5,099 bases of DNA from a virus. Position numbers and translations under genes: made by a program. Under the pieces are notes generated by a model, which was not told the DNA's origin, did not search any database, and saw only the letters and a program-made list of their open reading frames with translations. The stretch spans positions 1-5,099 of IMG/VR virus record IMGVR_UViG_3300020041_000213, one strand, 5' to 3'. Each line of letters starts with the position of its first letter. Positions within the stretch are counted from its first letter, which is position 1. Shown here in pieces: positions 1 through 5,099 of this stretch.

Positions 1-18
1 GCCGTGACGGCGGGAGCC

Positions 19-50
19 GGTGGGCGTGCGTGTAATACGCCCACCTTTTT
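19..50 (+). promoter_or_regulatory. GC-rich hairpin plus T5 tract; candidate plus-strand origin (nick-site) hairpin and/or intrinsic terminator
   Basis: GGTGGGCGT (19-27) pairs perfectly with ACGCCCACC (37-45). The 9-nt loop is GCGTGTAAT (28-36), and TTTTT follows at 46-50. It lies in the non-coding region just upstream of the Rep promoter. A second copy is at 4997-5028. Confidence 0.5.
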
Positions 51-61
51 GCAATTTCCTC

Positions 62-90
62 TTGACAGCTCCTTCATATTGTGGTAACTT
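62..90 (+). promoter_or_regulatory. Sigma70-type promoter for the Rep-SSB(-tRNA) transcription unit
   Basis: Perfect -35 TTGACA (62-67), a 17-nt spacer, then an extended -10 TGgTAACTT (82-90). It sits about 15 nt upstream of the Rep ribosome-binding motif. A second copy is at 5040-5068. Confidence 0.6.
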
Positions 91-122
91 TTAGCCATGG
101 AAATGAAAGGTGGTTTTCTCAC

Positions 123-1259
123 ATGAAAACGGTTGTTAAGCTTGACTATGCTACGTTTGCTTTTGAGCAAGGTTCGATTTCTATTTCTATCATCGAAGAT
201 GCGCTTGCTCAGTGCGATTTACATTTTTCGCAGATTTCCAACGCAAGTGAGAATTCCCCATACAATTCCCCTGCGGGCCTTTTCTTTAAGCCGAACAATG
301 GCGCGAAACAGTCTCCGCACTCTTTGCAAGTGTCCGGTCATGGTTGTGAGCTTTTCCGCCCCACATTGCCGCGGCTCGCGTCACTGATGCAGGATGGTCA
401 TGAATTCGGTCACTTTTCCCGTCTTGACTTTTGCTTCGACGTTGTTATGTCAAAACAACGGTGGCGCGAGTTCTATCTGGGTGTTATTTCTGCTTCTGTT
501 GATGAAATGAATTACCCTGAAAAAGCCCGTAAGGTTCGGAAGGTCATGTATCAGGGCTATGGCGATGCTACTACCGTCTATATTGGTCGTAGAACGTCCT
601 CCGCGGTCTTCTGCCGCATCTATAATAAATCCCTGCAAGACCCCGAAAAAAAGCTCTGTGTGGCTTCTGGTGAGTTTCTGGACTGTCCTGATGATTCTTA
701 CATCATTCGTTATGAGATGGAATTGAAATATACTTCTCGTGTCCGTTCTGGTTCTCGCTCCGTCTATGACCCGTCTTCGCTTTTCTGGTTTTACTACGAA
801 GACCCTGAGAAGCTTTTCGCCTATCTTCGTAAAGTCTGGAATCGTTACGGAAACGATACTCTTCTTCCCGATGGTTGGGAAGACATGCAGTTCGTGACTG
901 ATATTGCTGCACGTGGCATTCATTACACTGATGACTTTTGGCATCCTCTTAGTGATGACCTTGCTCAGAAGCTTTCCGTCTCTATCCATACTGAGGAACA
1001 AAAAATGTCCTATGTTGCTAACGTCTTTGGGCACCGGATTATTGATATCCTTCTTTATCGTCCTGAGTTGCTTTCCCTCGCTTGTTGCAAGTGGGAGCAG
1101 TTCTATAATGAGCGTCTTCCGTTTTCCCCTCTGGCGCTGACACAGGAAGTTGCTCAGTTCTCGGAATCCTCGCGCATTGCTGTCGAGGAATTCTATGAAC
1201 TCGCTGATGACCCCTCTCCCTTTAGTGATGTCGGGTTTGATGATATATCTTTATTCTAA
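123..1259 (+). CDS. Rolling-circle replication initiator, Rep_trans / RstA-like (378 aa from ATG 123)
   Basis: It is the longest ORF. The motif order fits my recollection of the Rep_trans family (pT181 RepC, CTXphi RstA): KLDYATFAF, then HFSRLDFCFDV, then TVYIGRRTSSAVFCRIYNKSLQ, then IIRYEMELKY. ATG 123 lies 12 nt after AAAGG (106-110). The GTG at 81 in the ORF track lies inside the promoter. Confidence 0.8.
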   Translation: MKTVVKLDYATFAFEQGSISISIIEDALAQCDLHFSQISNASENSPYNSPAGLFFKPNNGAKQSPHSLQVSGHGCELFRPTLPRLASLMQDGHEFGHFSRLDFCFDVVMSKQRWREFYLGVISASVDEMNYPEKARKVRKVMYQGYGDATTVYIGRRTSSAVFCRIYNKSLQDPEKKLCVASGEFLDCPDDSYIIRYEMELKYTSRVRSGSRSVYDPSSLFWFYYEDPEKLFAYLRKVWNRYGNDTLLPDGWEDMQFVTDIAARGIHYTDDFWHPLSDDLAQKLSVSIHTEEQKMSYVANVFGHRIIDILLYRPELLSLACCKWEQFYNERLPFSPLALTQEVAQFSESSRIAVEEFYELADDPSPFSDVGFDDISLF

Positions 1260-1277
1260 TGAAAGGATGGTCGCTCT

Positions 1278-1520
1278 ATGAAAGTTACTGTAGTTGGTAA
1301 GTCCCGCCGCGCTGGTACTTCTAAGCAGGGCAAAGACTACGATTTTACCACTATCATGGCCGAATATTCGATGCGTGCAAACGATGATAATGACGGCGTG
1401 CAGGTTGATAGAATCAATGTCGATGCTCGCATGATGCCGTATGCGCTCTTTGTCGTCGGCACTACGTATGACCTCGACTTCGATCGCAACGGTTATCTTC
1501 TCGGAATTGAGGAAGTCTAA
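1278..1520 (+). CDS. ssDNA-binding protein, Ff gene-V-like (80 aa)
   Basis: Size and position directly after Rep fit gene V. The N-terminal segment RAGTSKQGKDY resembles the RSGVSRQGKPY segment of M13/fd gene V protein as I recall it. AAAGG (1262-1266) lies 11 nt upstream of the ATG. Confidence 0.75.
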   Translation: MKVTVVGKSRRAGTSKQGKDYDFTTIMAEYSMRANDDNDGVQVDRINVDARMMPYALFVVGTTYDLDFDRNGYLLGIEEV

Positions 1521-1556
1521 CTCCCTTTGTTCAAACCTAAATTTCATTTCCTATGG

Positions 1557-1576
1557 GAGAGCGGTTCGCCGCTCTC
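1557..1576 (+). other. Perfect 8-bp stem-loop with TTCG loop, 4 nt upstream of the tRNA 5' end
   Basis: GAGAGCGG (1557-1564), TTCG, CCGCTCTC (1569-1576). No T-tract follows, so it is not a classical terminator. It may be a processing, stability or attenuator element. Confidence 0.6.
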
Positions 1577-1580
1577 ACAT

Positions 1581-1654
1581 GGCGGGTTGGTGTAATGGTA
1601 ACACGCAAGGTTCTGAGCCTTGACTTGGTAGTTCGATTCTATCTCCCGCAACCA
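1581..1654 (+). tRNA. tRNA with anticodon CUG (Gln-type by anticodon), encoded CCA end and initiator-like acceptor stem
   Basis: Hand-folded cloverleaf. Acceptor GGCGGGT/TCCCGCA: 5 G:C pairs, with G1xA72 and U7xU66 mismatches. U8 G9. D stem GTGT/ACAC with loop AATGGTA. Anticodon stem CAAGG/CCTTG with loop TT-CTG-AG (CTG at 1613-1615). 4-nt variable loop. T stem GGTAG/CTATC with canonical loop TTCGATT. A73 and CCA at 1651-1654. Total length 74 nt. Confidence 0.8.
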
Positions 1655-1710
1655 CTGTCGTGATTGACCTCCGACAGGAAAAATGCTTTTGCCGTGAGGG
1701 GGTGCGCGAA

Positions 1711-2850
1711 TTGAAGAAAAAGCAGCTGTGCTTGATGAATCGCTTCGCCGCCCTTGTTGCGGCTCTTATGCTTTGTGCGTCTCTGTGTATGCCTGTTTTC
1801 GCGTCTAATAATGCTTCTACTCGCAAGTGGCGCGTGATTGCCTCTGAACAGCGTACGGGTGAAAATGGTTCTTTGACTACTTATTTTAAGCTTAGTCCGT
1901 ACGAAAATGGCGCTCTGTATCAAGTCCCCTTGTATACTCGTTTTGGTGCTGCCACTAAGACTATTTCTGGTTCTACTCTTTATGATGTTTGGGCCGAACC
2001 TGTAAATTATCCTGATTGGTGGCGTTCTGATATTCCCCTCGGCGCTCGTTCTTATGTCGAAATTTCTAACATTCAGGATTTATCTTATTGGTTTGATGGT
2101 TCAAATTCTCAGACTTCTTTTTCTATTCTGCCTGTTCATCGTGATACTCTGATGCGATTTTCTTTTTCGGCTTATTCTTCTGCATCTTCTTTTTCCGGTG
2201 ACTTGTCTGTTGTTCCTGTTCGTTTCCATCGTTATTTGGGTTCTTTTTCTGATGTCGTTGATGTCGGGTTTTACGGTTATAACTTTGAAAAATCTGATGT
2301 TAATGATAGTTCTTTTTCTGTTATTGGAGCTTTGGAGACACGTCAAAATCTTGTCTATACCCCTATAGACCTTGGTGTTATTGGTACTACTGACTTTGAC
2401 GTTGGTCCTTCTTATCCATTTTATAATTGTTCTTCTTCTGATTTGATTTGGATTGTTCTCCCTCGAAATTTAACTGCTTCTTCTTCGTCTGCGATGTATG
2501 GTTCTTTTGCTCGTGTGCGTTGTACTATTTCTTATTGGGTCGATGCCAATAAGCTTCCTGCTGGTCTTCAAGTTGGTGACGAATTTCCCGCTGATACTGA
2601 CGCTTTCGACCAGCTCCGTGACGACCTCATTAAACAGTTCCCGGAAGCATCTGAAAATATTGAGAACGGTAAAGATACTATTCAGGCCTGGAACGATACG
2701 GAAACGGTCGATACTGACGTTGCATCCACTTCTATTTCGGCGCTTAACGCCTTATTTCAGAATCTCGGCGGTTTCCTTTTCATAGTTTCTCTCATGGTCT
2801 TTGGTGCTGTTGTACTTCGTATGTTGATACGAAAGGCGGTTGACGGATGA
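1711..2850 (+). CDS. Secreted, C-terminally membrane-anchored minor coat / adsorption protein (pIII-like), about 379 aa
   Basis: A Sec-type signal peptide (M)KKKQLCLMNRFAALVAALMLCASLCMPVFA/SNN, a Ser-rich body, and a C-terminal TM GGFLFIVSLMVFGAVVLRMLIRK. TTG 1711 lies 8 nt after GAGGGGG (1696-1702) and supplies a basic n-region. ATG 1735 is the alternative start. The GTG 1660 in the ORF track starts 6 nt after the tRNA and has no RBS. Confidence 0.7.
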   Translation: MKKKQLCLMNRFAALVAALMLCASLCMPVFASNNASTRKWRVIASEQRTGENGSLTTYFKLSPYENGALYQVPLYTRFGAATKTISGSTLYDVWAEPVNYPDWWRSDIPLGARSYVEISNIQDLSYWFDGSNSQTSFSILPVHRDTLMRFSFSAYSSASSFSGDLSVVPVRFHRYLGSFSDVVDVGFYGYNFEKSDVNDSSFSVIGALETRQNLVYTPIDLGVIGTTDFDVGPSYPFYNCSSSDLIWIVLPRNLTASSSSAMYGSFARVRCTISYWVDANKLPAGLQVGDEFPADTDAFDQLRDDLIKQFPEASENIENGKDTIQAWNDTETVDTDVASTSISALNALFQNLGGFLFIVSLMVFGAVVLRMLIRKAVDG

Positions 2851-2978
2851 CTTTTATTGACTTCTTCAAACAAGTCTTTGGCCTGCTCGGTTCCGGTGGT
2901 GCCCTTGTTATCGCTGTTGTTGTCTTCCTCGTTGCCCTCGGTATATATAAGTTTGTAAAGGATTGGTTGCCATGGTAG
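2847..2978 (+). CDS. 43-aa single-pass hydrophobic protein (coat-protein candidate, Pf3-like, no leader)
   Basis: MTFIDFFKQVFGLLGSGGALVIAVVVFLVALGIYKFVKDWLPW. It has an acidic/amphipathic N-terminus, a TM segment and a basic C-terminus. The ATG overlaps the upstream stop (ATGA), and AAAGG (2832-2836) lies 10 nt upstream. It is too short to appear in the ORF track. Confidence 0.6.
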   Translation: MTFIDFFKQVFGLLGSGGALVIAVVVFLVALGIYKFVKDWLPW

Positions 2979-3139
2979 ATTTCGTTTCGACTCTCGGTGT
3001 TGTAACATCGTTTATTGCGAACGTTCTTAACCTTTCTTTTTTCGGTTTCGGGACTTTTGGTAACTTTGTTCTTGTTTGTCTCCTGCTTACGCTTGTTGGT
3101 TTCGTTCTTCGTGGCCTTTGGGATGGGGGTGAAAAATAA
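2972..3139 (+). CDS. 55-aa hydrophobic membrane protein (minor virion/assembly protein candidate)
   Basis: MVDFVSTLGVVTSFIANVLNLSFFGFGTFGNFVLVCLLLTLVGFVLRGLWDGGEK. It starts within the preceding stop region (ATGGTAG overlap), and AAAGG (2957-2961) lies 10 nt upstream. Its stop TAA overlaps the next ATG (TAATG). Confidence 0.55.
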   Translation: MVDFVSTLGVVTSFIANVLNLSFFGFGTFGNFVLVCLLLTLVGFVLRGLWDGGEK

Positions 3140-3753
3140 TGGAAGTTCCTACTATTATTAAAATTTGGGTTGATTCTGACGGCGTGACCGTTTATACAGT
3201 TCAGTATAAGGACGGTAGTACCTGTGACATGACCGTTCAGCAGTATGATTATCTTAAGGCATCTGCCGAAGCTGTTGTAAACCTCGATTCTCAGCAGGAT
3301 GCACAAGATTCCTCTTCTCCTGAAGCTCCTTTTTCTGGTGATCCTGCACAAAATATCACTGAATCTCCCGACCTTCGCGAAGGTTATGTGTCAGAGGAAG
3401 AAGTATTGCCTTTTGAAGGGAGCCTAACCGCTTATGATGACCGCGCCGCAGATACTCCGGCTTTGTATGCTAATCTCCCTAACGTCTCTAATAGTTTCAC
3501 TGCTATTATGGATTGGTTCGGAGACACGTTTTTTATCGAACGCACTGAGACGGTGCACAAGTCCGGTTATACGTCCGAAAGGTATTCCTATAGTGGTTCG
3601 ACTCAACTTATTCAGCTTCCTTATGAGGAAGATTCCACTACTACCTCTCAGGTTCTCAACCCGCAAGCTTGCGTTTCTGCTCTTCTTGTTGTCCTTGTCT
3701 TTGTTACTACTGTTACTTGGATTAAGCACGCGATTTGGGGGCGCATGAGCTGA
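3139..3753 (+). CDS. 204-aa acidic protein with a C-terminal TM anchor and no signal peptide; function unknown (possible second minor coat / host-interaction protein)
   Basis: The composition is protein-like and the C-terminal TM is ACVSALLVVLVFVTTVTWIKHAIWGR. GGGGG (3125-3129) lies 9 nt upstream of the ATG. I recognise no family. Confidence 0.65.
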   Translation: MEVPTIIKIWVDSDGVTVYTVQYKDGSTCDMTVQQYDYLKASAEAVVNLDSQQDAQDSSSPEAPFSGDPAQNITESPDLREGYVSEEEVLPFEGSLTAYDDRAADTPALYANLPNVSNSFTAIMDWFGDTFFIERTETVHKSGYTSERYSYSGSTQLIQLPYEEDSTTTSQVLNPQACVSALLVVLVFVTTVTWIKHAIWGRMS

Positions 3754-3866
3754 TGACTATATTACCCTTGCAGTATTGTCTCGGTATATTCTCCGTCCCC
3801 GAGATTGGCTACTTCATTATCTTCGCCGCTGTCTTCTCTATGTTGGTTCTCCTGCTCCGTCCGTGA
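3753..3866 (+). CDS. 37-aa hydrophobic peptide (pVII/pIX-size minor protein candidate)
   Basis: MTILPLQYCLGIFSVPEIGYFIIFAAVFSMLVLLLRP. The ATG overlaps the preceding stop (TGATG), and GGGGG (3737-3741) lies 11 nt upstream. Confidence 0.45.
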   Translation: MTILPLQYCLGIFSVPEIGYFIIFAAVFSMLVLLLRP

Positions 3867-3966
3867 CAGGTACCATAAATATTTTATGAAAGGATGATGA
3901 CTTCAGACTACGCCTACTTCTATCATTGCTACGCTGCTTTCTCAGGTCGGTGAGTTCTTCACCCAG

Positions 3967-4095
3967 ATGATTACCTGGATGGGTCAGTTGCTGGACTTCT
4001 ATGAGGCTCAGCCGATTCTCCTCGTCTTCGTCCTCATCGCTATTGCCGGCATTGTCCTGCGCGTCCTCCGTCGCTGGATTCCCGGTCGCTCTTAA
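3967..4095 (+). CDS. Major-coat-like small protein. The minimal ATG-initiated form is 42 aa; the frame is open from 3901, with a possible non-AUG (CAG 3904) start giving 63 aa
   Basis: MITWMGQLLDFYEAQPILLVFVLIAIAGIVLRVLRRWIPGRS has acidic residues, a TM segment and four Arg at the C-terminus, which is the classic inovirus coat layout. GGTGAG (3949-3954) lies 12 nt upstream of ATG 3967. A strong terminator follows immediately, as after gene VIII in Ff phages. See the findings for the upstream extension. Confidence 0.6.
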   Translation: MITWMGQLLDFYEAQPILLVFVLIAIAGIVLRVLRRWIPGRS

Positions 4096-4102
4096 GTGCT
4101 GA

Positions 4103-4148
4103 GAGAAAACGCCGCCGACCATTTTTGGTCGGCGACGTTTTCTCGTTT
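4103..4148 (+). terminator. Strong rho-independent terminator after the coat-like gene
   Basis: GAGAAAACGCCGCCGACC (4103-4120) pairs with GGTCGGCGACGTTTTCTC (4127-4144). That is an 18-bp stem with one mismatch (C4112xA4135), loop ATTTTT and a GC-rich core followed by TTTTCTCGTTT. It starts 8 nt after the TAA at 4093-4095. Confidence 0.75.
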
Positions 4149-4169
4149 ATGATGAAAGGTTGTTATGCT

Positions 4170-4793
4170 ATGGTTTATGGTATCCTTATCTTTTGCATTT
4201 GCTGGCTTTTTGTATATATCGATAATTATTGCAAAAACCCCTACAAACTTGAAGCTGTTGTTGGTTCGAAAGGCTCTGGCAAGTCTCTGTATATGTCTCG
4301 TGTTGCTGATAAGTGGCTTCGTTCTAATAAGGGGCTTATCTATAGTAATATGGGTATTGGTTATGAGTTAGAGCCGGAATACTGGAAACAGACTTTTCTC
4401 CCTGATTCCCTCATCCTCATAGATGAAATTGGCGTTTTGCACTCTAACCGGGATTTCAAGACTATGCCCCGTGAAGCAGTTGAGTTTTTCAAGATGCAGC
4501 GCAAGTATCACTTGACAATTATTGTATCGTCTCAGACCATGGACTTTGATAAAAAGATTCGTGATCTCTGCGATCGCATTTACCTCTGTAACCGCGTTGG
4601 TTGGTTCTGCCGCCTTACTCCCTATCGCTCCTGCATTGCCATGGAACATCGCCCCGAGGGAGGACAAGAGCTCGTCAATACGGTGCGTAAGGCGGGCAGG
4701 GCAAAATGGTATACCATCCCTAAGGCCGTGAAGCAGGTAAGCGCCTTAGAATACGATACAGAGCAGGTTATCAGCAAGACCCCCTCGAGATAA
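4170..4793 (+). CDS. Zot / pI-like morphogenesis P-loop ATPase, short form (207 aa) with an N-terminal TM helix
   Basis: Walker A GSKGSGKS (nt 4263-4286), Walker B LILIDE, and a Zot-type TIIVSSQ motif. AAAGG (4155-4159) lies 10 nt upstream of ATG 4170. In-frame ATGs at 4149 and 4152 are alternatives. The TTG 4125 in the ORF track lies in the terminator loop. Confidence 0.8.
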   Translation: MVYGILIFCICWLFVYIDNYCKNPYKLEAVVGSKGSGKSLYMSRVADKWLRSNKGLIYSNMGIGYELEPEYWKQTFLPDSLILIDEIGVLHSNRDFKTMPREAVEFFKMQRKYHLTIIVSSQTMDFDKKIRDLCDRIYLCNRVGWFCRLTPYRSCIAMEHRPEGGQELVNTVRKAGRAKWYTIPKAVKQVSALEYDTEQVISKTPSR

Positions 4794-4849
4794 AAACTTC
4801 CCCCCCCCCGTGCCCTTTAGGGTCAGGGGGGTTGTTTTTATTTCTGTTG
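4792..4849 (+). terminator. Long imperfect hairpin with C10/G6 tracts and a T-rich tail; likely terminator at the end of the gene array
   Basis: AAAAAC (4792-4797) pairs with GTTTTT (4834-4839). The C run 4800-4809 pairs with the G run 4826-4831. The inner stem is CCC-TTTA-GGG (4813-4822). TTGTTTTTATTTCTGTT follows. It begins at the Zot-like stop codon. Confidence 0.5.
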
Positions 4850-4915
4850 AGGAATTTCGCAGGCAGTTGCCACGTTTAGTCACGCGATAGCGTCTCCACC
4901 GCGGCCCCCGTCCCC

Positions 4916-4934
4916 GCAAGGGCAAAGCCCTTGC
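4916..4934. other. Perfect 8-bp hairpin in the GC-rich intergenic region (candidate ssDNA structural signal: minus-strand origin or packaging)
   Basis: GCAAGGGC (4916-4923), AAA, GCCCTTGC (4927-4934), directly followed by a second GCCCTT (4933-4938). Confidence 0.5.
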
Positions 4935-4978
4935 CCTTCCCAAAACAGGTTGGCAGGGGCTTTCGATACGTAGTGACT

Positions 4979-5099
4979 GCCGTGACGGCGGGAGCCGGTG
5001 GGCGTGCGTGTAATACGCCCACCTTTTTGCAATTTCCTCTTGACAGCTCCTTCATATTGTGGTAACTTTTAGCCATGGAAATGAAAGGTGGTTTTCTCA
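4979..5099. repeat. Right copy of the 121-nt terminal direct repeat (circular overlap)
   Basis: Identical to 1-121. It contains second copies of the origin-like hairpin, the promoter and the Rep leader motif, which are the same physical locus. Confidence 0.9.

Follow-up and report, generated by a model that had tools for sequence, protein, structure and literature searches.

A phage-encoded tRNA with anticodon CUG as a probable non-methionine initiator for coat-protein synthesis at CAG in a small gut inovirus

We analysed a viral sequence of 5,099 nucleotides (nt) (IMG/VR record IMGVR_UViG_3300020041_000213, positions 1 to 5,099; hereafter the window), which carries a tRNA gene with anticodon CUG and, further downstream, a putative major coat gene whose reading frame appears to open with the cognate codon, CAG. 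Our comparative analysis makes it very likely that this tRNA is a phage-encoded initiator tRNA that uses neither methionine nor AUG, and we infer that it reads the start codon of the coat gene. Likely, too, is a wider reading, in which non-methionine initiator tRNAs encoded by gut phages establish private start codons on virion genes. These codons would be CAG/CAA (Gln-type), ACN (Thr-type), and AGG (Arg-type), and the genes would be the major coat gene of small inoviruses and the terminase, portal, and capsid genes of tailed phages. To our knowledge, the synthesis of all bacterial and phage proteins described so far is begun by the methionine initiator tRNA of the host, at AUG or at a codon near-cognate to it, and non-methionine starts at other codons have so far needed engineered initiator tRNAs. 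A 121-nt terminal direct repeat (1-121 and 4979-5099; the window was assembled with overlap) shows that the window represents an entire circular genome, 4978 nt in length, and megablast matches to porcine uncultured "Inovirus sp." genomes of 4.9-5.5 kb (82-84% identity over 34-43%) argue that it belongs to a small gut inovirus.

The tRNA gene passes the gathering score of Rfam RF00005 (46 against 29 bits), and the Rfam alignment marks two non-standard pairs, 1:72 and 7:66. The acceptor stem reads G1·A72, G2:C71, C3:G70, G4:C69, G5:C68, G6:C67, and U7·U66, followed by A73 and an encoded CCA. The 1x72 mismatch, the pairs 2:71 to 6:67, A73, and CCA had been listed in an earlier note made from the sequence alone; all are present. 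ARAGORN also calls the gene, as tRNA-Gln(ctg). Of 35 distinct relatives, 34 form a pair at 7:66, U7·U66 being peculiar to the window genome, and this mismatch (1587, 1644) leaves the window tRNA five Watson-Crick acceptor pairs. The anticodon stem is formed by C27:G43, A28:U42, A29:U41, G30:C40, and G31:C39, the anticodon loop is UUCUGAG, the D loop measures 7 nt, and 11:24 is U:A. The anticodon is of the YUG type, as in elongator tRNA-Gln, and not CAU, as in the bacterial initiator. The minimum-energy fold of the single sequence is not a cloverleaf (z = -1.1) and was uninformative; comparative evidence was used instead. The earlier note had further given positions 2-6 and the 3' end as identical to E. 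coli tRNAfMet. The tRNAfMet sequence, CGCGGGG...CCCCGCAACCA, occurs at 100% in 5426/5426 E. coli genomes with a median of 4 copies, and the window tRNA is identical to it at positions 2-6 and 67-76.

The survey of related small inoviruses that the earlier note had suggested shows the tRNA in essentially every complete relative. It lies at the equivalent place in all eight GenBank relatives first examined and in 34 of 38 IMG/VR relatives, which had been picked via an unrelated protein (3139-3753); the four genomes without a tRNA are partial contigs. The anticodon, D, and T stems covary among relatives, and in 35 relatives the stems are at least 94% paired with covariation, with the exception of 49:65, which is G·A in 20. 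Among 35 distinct phage tRNAs of the CUG class, position 1:72 is G·A in 24, C·A in seven, A·A in three, and U:A in one, so that it is unpaired in 34/35 with three different bases at position 1, and A73 is present in all 35. Judged by this comparison, the acceptor end of the phage tRNA appears to be under selection. In tRNAs found through coat homology (n = 15), G2:C71 and C3:G70 are unchanged in 13, the two ambiguous cases being L388 and L390, whose 5' strand contains one additional U. Three of the tRNAs (L379, L380, and L382) show covariation at pairs 4:69 to 7:66, and 1:72 is never G:C or C:G. The extra U is found in the 5' acceptor strand of the tRNA(CGU) of L388, L389, and L390 (MT135294, MT135306, and MT135299), which reads UGUCGGGG vs CCCCGCA.

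The codon cognate to this tRNA stands at the start position of the putative coat gene. CAG 3904 lies 10 nt after the GG of a Shine-Dalgarno (SD) sequence, with the same 10-nt spacing as at ATG 2847, ATG 2972, and ATG 4170 (Zot). GAAAGG or AAAGGA with a start codon 10-12 nt downstream is found at six window genes and at the coat gene; the ATG starts at 123, 1278, 2847, and 4170 follow GAAAGG at this distance, and that at 2972 follows AAAGGA. Initiation at CAG, which the earlier note had proposed from the tRNA, is thereby matched at the sequence level by a cognate CAG at an SD-defined coat start. The first canonical in-frame start of the open reading frame (ORF) is ATG 3967, 21 codons after CAG. 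In the clade of the window, CAG is invariant in 43/43 distinct coat genes, the preceding codon varies (CTT, TTT, or CAT), and an in-frame stop lies one to two codons before CAG in all genomes. Because coat-gene indels after CAG keep the frame in these 43 genomes, and variation within codons 13 and 15-20 of the extension is confined to third positions, the 21-codon stretch ahead of ATG 3967, of which the peptide QTTPTSIIATLLSQVGEFFTQ is part, appears to be translated in the coat frame, with CAG as the only start available. A conserved motif, (T)ATGAAAGGATGATGA, spans 3886-3900 and extends in its conservation beyond the SD itself. Within this motif, the SD is preceded by an ATG in frame and followed, after 0-2 nt, by two ATGs out of frame, and the double stop also belongs to it.

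The predicted coat product, 63 amino acids (aa) long, combines an N terminus that varies among relatives with a single hydrophobic segment and a basic C-terminal end, RVLRRWIPGRS. For comparison, a g8p-like inovirus major coat protein would have about 45-70 aa, one long helix, a hydrophobic core, a basic C terminus, and a match to a sequence family. AlphaFold models it as two long helices, residues 4-35 and 37-58, with a predicted local distance difference test (pLDDT) score of 85. The homologous CAG-start protein of bajarodino virus 11 (L005) matches the virion structural protein family phrog_2186 (4e-6) and, weakly, Pfam Inovirus_capsid (0.3); a PDB search with this L005 protein gave nothing informative. 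A terminator-like hairpin follows the coat gene, and in Ff phages a terminator follows gene VIII, which is an analogy only.

A start at the internal ATG 3967 would yield a 42-aa product and would leave the upstream conservation to an RNA structure or to a short ORF from ATG 3897, in which case the tRNA would have no connection with this gene. An ATG or GTG at the codon of 3967 is indeed conserved in the clade, and a 19-codon ORF runs in another frame from ATG 3894/3897. We nevertheless regard this explanation as very improbable, given the third-position-only variation and the frame-keeping indels in the upstream 21 codons. The sole SD near ATG 3967 is a weak one, GGTGAG, at 13 nt, whereas the strong GAAAGGA serves CAG, and ATG 3897 is just 2 nt from that SD. 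Moreover, homologues in L008, L391, and L392 begin with a canonical codon at the position equivalent to CAG and not at the internal Met, and the first canonical codon elsewhere lies inside the membrane segment, as at codon 39 in L008.

A variant code or read-through, with TGA as a sense codon and translation from ATG 3886 through TGA TGA, would draw on the in-frame sequence ATG AAA GGA TGA TGA CTT CAG of the window. Several relatives, however, have AAG or TTG in place of ATG 3886, and TAA replaces TGA in one. Other lineages use TAA or TAG as the stop that precedes the non-canonical start, and the large window genes are all intact under translation table 11. It would also leave the covariation of the anticodon, described below, unexplained, and we give it hardly any credence. 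A frameshift from ATG 3894/3897 into the coat frame was judged unlikely, as there is no slippery site and these ATGs lie 0-2 nt from the SD.

Across related phages, the anticodon of the tRNA and the start codon of the coat gene change together, in the combinations CUG/CAG, UUG/CAA, CGU/ACG, AGU/ACU, UGU/ACA, and GGU/ACC. CAG is also the coat start in the distant lineages L005, L006, L007, L104, L128, L137, L379, L380, and L382; in the bajarodino viruses L005 and L006, 44 nt separate the tRNA from the CAG-start coat gene that follows it. Genome MT135301 (L008), with a CGU tRNA, encodes two tandem coat paralogues, one starting with SD and ACG and the other with ATG; the ACG-start copy has a TGA three codons upstream, and its first canonical in-frame codon is at position 39. 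Homologous coat families switch their start with the local tRNA, as in the pairs L005 (CAG) and L320 (ACA), L007 (CAG) and L008 (ACG), and L128 (CAG) and L298 (ACG).

When metagenomes were scanned for this tRNA scaffold with G or C at position 35, 88 loci were obtained, with anticodons CGU, AGU, GGU, UGU, and CCU and with G·A, C·A, A·A, or U:A at 1:72. Coat-like ORFs in these loci open, behind an SD, with the cognate codon, namely ACG in 19 loci, ACT in L311, ACA in L320, and ACC in L357. In a control that counted all codons, CUG-tRNA loci had a CAG coat start in 36/38 and ACG in 0/38, and CGU-tRNA loci had ACG in 20/35 and CAG in 0/35; the other frequent codons were only immediate neighbours in the same ORFs. 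An independent set of 17 GenBank inoviruses was chosen by tblastn with a coat protein. Fifteen carry a tRNA (CGU, AGU, UGU, CUG, or UUG; that of L389 spans the record origin), and all 15 have the cognate codon at the SD-defined coat start. In the two genomes that lack a tRNA, PQ006153 and PP511378, the coat starts are TTG or ATG only.

Several details of these loci may be added. In L381 (MT135298), the tRNA(UUG) at 1896-1970 on the minus strand has C1·A72 and A73, and the coat start reads AGAAAGGTGGAATGTTTT-CAA. The coat start of L388-L390 reads TTG ACG, and either codon could serve. Two tandem coat paralogues, one with the tRNA-cognate non-canonical start and one with ATG, GTG, or TTG, occur in many relatives (L008, L300, L333, L318, L311, L376-L378, L380, and L382), and such pairs may give tRNA-dependent and tRNA-independent coat variants. 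None of the GenBank records examined (MT1352xx, PQ0061xx, and PP511378) annotates the tRNA, and most leave the non-canonical-start coat gene unannotated; in PQ006104, the coat coding sequence is annotated from a far-upstream start. The NGU-class (Thr-type) metagenome tRNAs, L288-L375, usually have a pyrimidine at position 37 (U in 20/36) and a U31·U39 mismatch, with C or U at position 73, features that are unusual for an elongator tRNA-Thr.

The loci that encode a tRNA(CCU) having a 1x72 mismatch and A73 are tailed-phage fragments (L324, L340, L307, L330, and L354). In L324, AGG behind a strong SD opens each of three genes (portal, major capsid, and small terminase), none of which has a canonical start. 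L340 shows the same arrangement, SD and AGG without a canonical start, on four structural genes: the portal gene, a protease-like gene, a major-capsid-like gene, and a fourth one. The sole IMG/VR match for the CGU version, L287, is likewise a tailed-phage fragment, with 28% GC.

Other phage contigs carry tRNAs with comparable ends. Two IMG/VR contigs of 37 and 25 kb, L179 and L201, have class-I-sized tRNAs with anticodon CAG (codon CUG), C1·A72 or A1·A72, and A73, which may be initiators for CUG starts. In many phage contigs (L167, L188, L217, L222, L225, L240, and others), a tRNA(CAU) with a 1x72 mismatch and A73 has the short tRNA-Gln-like D arm GGUGAAAUGGUAUCAC and not the usual D arm of tRNAfMet, which points to a broader set of phage initiator tRNAs with a tRNA-Gln-like scaffold.

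To place the phage tRNA among cellular tRNAs, one genome per bacterial species was scanned with the pattern CUG-A37, T loop, and CCCGCA-N-CCA. More than 120 contigs matched, many of them long and chromosomal, from Oscillospiraceae, other Clostridia, Patescibacteria, Elusimicrobia, and other lineages. The matched genes are ordinary tRNA-Gln(CUG) with the pattern U-GCGGG...CCCGC-A-G-CCA. In these cellular tRNAs, a GCGGG/CCCGC stem, A72, and a short D arm are normal, and the stem is not specific to initiators. U1:A72 is present in 88 and G73 in 83 of 91 distinct cellular tRNA-Gln(CUG), and three sequences of the scan without U1 sit on short phage-like contigs. The window tRNA lacks both of these elongator features. 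The earlier note had held that its reading would fall if host elongator tRNA-Gln genes shared the same acceptor end. Half of this resemblance exists, namely pairs 2:71 to 6:67 and A72; the cellular genes have U1:A72 and G73, however, and therefore do not share the same G1xA72 and A73.

Over its whole length, the window tRNA shares 76% identity with Clostridia tRNA-Gln(CUG) and 61% with E. coli tRNAfMet; in the core (positions 8-65), the values are 73% and 54%. The D arm is nearly alike in Clostridia tRNA-Gln and in the phage tRNA (UUGUGUAAUGGUAGCAC vs UGGUGUAAUGGUAACAC). The phage tRNA thus most likely derives from a Clostridia-type tRNA-Gln(CUG). tRNAfMet was ruled out as its origin by the core identity of 54% vs 73% and by the GCGGG stem being normal in tRNA-Gln(CUG). 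The description of the tRNA as a hybrid of tRNA-Gln and initiator, given in the earlier note, holds for the initiator-type end (1x72 and A73) and for the Gln-like body, and most of the acceptor stem, too, is tRNA-Gln-derived. Only the unpaired position 1 and A73 appear to set the phage tRNA apart from an elongator tRNA-Gln, and a Clostridia-type tRNA-Gln(CUG) would be two substitutions away from an initiator-type acceptor end.

The window tRNA contains G2:C71 and C3:G70 as well as G4:C69 and A73, which are minor determinants for methionyl-tRNA formyltransferase (Fmt), all four determinants being present. Fmt recognizes the 1x72 mismatch together with 2:71 and 3:70, and the mismatch disfavours EF-Tu and protects from peptidyl-tRNA hydrolase (Pth) (PMC6393288), in agreement with what the earlier note had stated about Fmt and EF-Tu. 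Among initiator mutants, U1:A72 is still well formylated, and G72G73 is a very poor formylation substrate (PMC6265465). The changes specific to the phage tRNA, at positions 1 and 73, fall on the very positions singled out in this literature. The cellular tRNA-Gln(CUG) of L047-L166, with U1:A72, G2:C71, C3:G70, and G4:C69, are themselves close to a formyltransferase substrate, and G73 may be what keeps them out of initiation.

With a body so close to that of a cellular tRNA-Gln(CUG), the tRNA could be an ordinary elongator that supplements CAG decoding, its odd acceptor end merely tuning charging, for instance by easing the opening of 1:72 by glutaminyl-tRNA synthetase (GlnRS). In the E. coli complex, GlnRS unpairs 1:72, which counts for this explanation, as do the elongator-type 11:24 pair and anticodon stem and the codon usage of the phage, in which CAG is the major Gln codon (37 CAG vs 14 CAA among 1437 internal codons). 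An elongator, however, leaves unexplained the invariant CAG at the SD-defined start of the coat ORF, the joint switch of anticodon and start codon across seven classes, and the canonical starts of relatives that lack the tRNA. A 1x72 mismatch that disfavours EF-Tu (PMC6393288) is also at odds with such a role, and we consider the elongator explanation unlikely.

We think it highly improbable that the tRNA-like sequence acts mainly at the level of DNA or RNA, as an attP site, a transcript-processing signal, or a folded single-stranded DNA element. The gene does sit between the replication and structural modules, directly after an 8-bp hairpin (1557-1576), where processing by RNase P and RNase Z would cut the mRNA, and tRNA genes are the integration sites of many temperate elements. 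Against this, the cloverleaf is kept complete, its D and T loops are conserved, its stems covary, and the gene encodes CCA, and an anticodon that is conserved within clades and matched to the coat start across clades is not what such an element predicts. For an attP site in particular, no integrase was found among the proteins encoded in the window. A side-effect on transcript processing is compatible with an initiator tRNA.

If the tRNA is an initiator, the following mechanism can be proposed. Loss of U1:A72, with G, C, or A at position 1, and replacement of G73 by A73 would have given a tRNA-Gln an initiator-type end. The CUG anticodon would direct charging with glutamine, by GlnRS or by GluRS together with GatCAB, to judge from the anticodon itself and from the precedent of the engineered i-tRNA(CUA). 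The host Fmt would then formylate the charged tRNA, the unpaired 1x72 end would keep it from EF-Tu and Pth, and IF2 would deliver it to the 30S P site, where it would pair with CAG 3904, 10 nt after the coat SD. The coat protein would begin with (formyl-)Gln, and its synthesis would depend on the phage tRNA. The purpose may, speculatively, be to gate the translation of virion genes or to provide a non-methionine N terminus. As the earlier note had stated, the E. coli initiator with a CUA anticodon starts with glutamine at UAG; it is charged by GlnRS and formylated (PMC6393288).

A number of points weigh against the tRNA being an initiator of this kind. U11:A24, an elongator-type pair, is found in all 79 distinct tRNAs of the family, and the initiator pair A11:U24 does not occur. 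The three consecutive G:C pairs (3GC) at 29:41, 30:40, and 31:39, by which bacterial initiators are defined, are replaced by A:U, G:C, and G:C in the window, and 3GC mutants of the CUA initiator fail to initiate in wild-type E. coli (PMC6393288). The earlier note had taken the AU/GC/GC stem as a pattern known from functional initiators; it is present in the window tRNA but is not conserved in the family, in which 0-3 of the pairs 29-31 are G:C, with no enrichment over cellular tRNA-Gln. Charging, formylation, use of IF2 and of the P site, and the N terminus of the coat protein are all steps that we infer. CAG being the preferred internal Gln codon, the tRNA may possibly also serve in elongation. 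The window protein owes its label of putative major coat protein to its features, as it had no informative match in Pfam, PHROGs, a PDB sequence search, or Foldseek/BFVD. A canonical in-frame codon lies near or inside the SD in L007 (GTG), L104 (ATG), and L388-L390 (TTG), loci that are ambiguous when taken alone. Finally, a Clostridia host is only hinted at, by metagenome-assembled Lachnospiraceae contigs (L065 and L104) and an Oscillospiraceae isolate contig (L137).

The phage tRNA resembles bacterial tRNAfMet (E. coli metZWV/metY) in lacking a Watson-Crick 1:72 pair, in G2:C71, C3:G70, G4:C69, A73, and CCA, and in that it would decode the codon at an SD-defined start. It differs in its anticodon, CUG instead of CAU, and presumably in its amino acid, Gln instead of Met; in AU/GC/GC instead of 3GC and U:A instead of A:U at 11:24; and in its 7-nt D loop, its tRNA-Gln-like body, and its being encoded by a virus. 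With the tRNA-Gln(CUG) of Clostridia (Oscillospiraceae and Lachnospiraceae), it has in common an anticodon loop of the type CUCUGAA or similar, the D arm, G2-G6/C67-C71, and A72, but these cellular tRNAs have U1:A72 and G73 where the phage tRNA has G, C, or A opposite A72, and A73. The phage tRNA appears to be neither a tRNAfMet, lacking CAU and 3GC, nor an elongator tRNA-Gln, lacking U1:A72 and G73, and appears to work like tRNAfMet.

Among non-standard systems, the engineered i-tRNA(CUA) and later orthogonal initiation systems likewise combine an initiator-type end with a non-CAU anticodon that acts at the matching non-AUG codon. They are, however, laboratory mutants of tRNAfMet that keep 3GC, whereas the phage tRNA is natural, has a tRNA-Gln body, and would read a sense codon, CAG, paired with an essential virion gene. 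Phage suppressor tRNAs, known from crAss-like and Lak phages, recode stop codons in late genes. In both cases, a phage tRNA would change the reading of a codon concentrated in virion or late genes, and the translation of these genes would depend on it; the suppressors act in elongation at stops, whereas here a sense codon would serve as the start. In a full-text literature search, in which subscription journals were thinly covered, no natural initiator tRNA with a non-CAU anticodon was found, only engineered systems. For inoviruses, it gave no paper dealing with tRNAs or with starts at CAG, ACG, or AGG either, and a prior report is possible.

If our reading is correct, these phages hold a natural exception to the bacterial start with fMet-tRNAfMet, in which the synthesis of structural proteins is gated by a phage tRNA and begins with an amino acid other than methionine. 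The existence of a natural, virus-encoded starter tRNA with its own private start codon would demonstrate that nature can reassign the start signal of the genetic code, and the evolutionary route would be simple, with tRNA-Gln(CUG) only two substitutions from an initiator-type end. It would also explain the missing or truncated coat and virion genes in the annotations of these phages, and it suggests a rule for gene callers, namely to admit the codon matching the anticodon of the phage tRNA as an extra start codon. Such tRNAs could provide orthogonal initiation parts for synthetic biology and phage containment. They raise the questions of how an initiator works without three G:C pairs, which enzymes charge and formylate it, and whether it serves the timing of late genes or the protection of the N terminus of virion proteins.

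All genes of the window lie on the plus strand (Table 1), and several small hydrophobic proteins are encoded in addition to those tabulated.

Table 1. Coordinates of the tRNA, the coat gene, and other features of the window, and of the AGG-start genes of tailed-phage fragment L324 (numbered on that contig)
Feature	Coordinates	Strand	Basis or remark
tRNA(CUG) with encoded CCA	1581-1654	+	ARAGORN tRNA-Gln(ctg); Rfam RF00005 46 bits, E = 1e-7
tRNA position 1, G, opposite A72 at 1650 (1x72 mismatch)	1581	+	
Anticodon CTG, tRNA positions 34-36, complementary to CAG	1613-1615	+	ARAGORN and sequence reading
A72, discriminator A73 (1651), encoded CCA (1652-1654)	1650-1654	+	Sequence reading
Shine-Dalgarno sequence GAAAGGA of coat gene	3888-3894	+	
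Two in-frame stops, TGA TGA, directly upstream of coat frame	3895-3900	+	
CAG, proposed non-canonical coat start, cognate to tRNA anticodon	3904-3906	+	
Putative major coat gene, 63 codons and TAA	3904-4095	+	Stop-to-stop ORF 3901-4095
Terminator-like hairpin after coat gene	4113-4134	+	9-bp stem (7 G:C), then T-rich tail
Rep_trans-type replication protein	123-1259	+	ATG start
RstB-like small protein (weak)	1278-1520	+	
379-aa protein with signal peptide	1711-2850	+	
Zot/g1p-like assembly ATPase	4170-4793	+	
L324 portal	2831-4474	-	Pfam Phage_portal, 1.6e-43
L324 major capsid	1013-2200	-	Phage_capsid, 1.9e-44
L324 small terminase	7167-7625	-	Terminase_4, 2.8e-5

The hairpin ahead of the tRNA is perfectly paired over its 8 bp, GAGAGCGG-TTCG-CCGCTCTC, ends 4 nt before the tRNA, and lacks a T tract; it could act in processing or stability or form a structure in single-stranded DNA.

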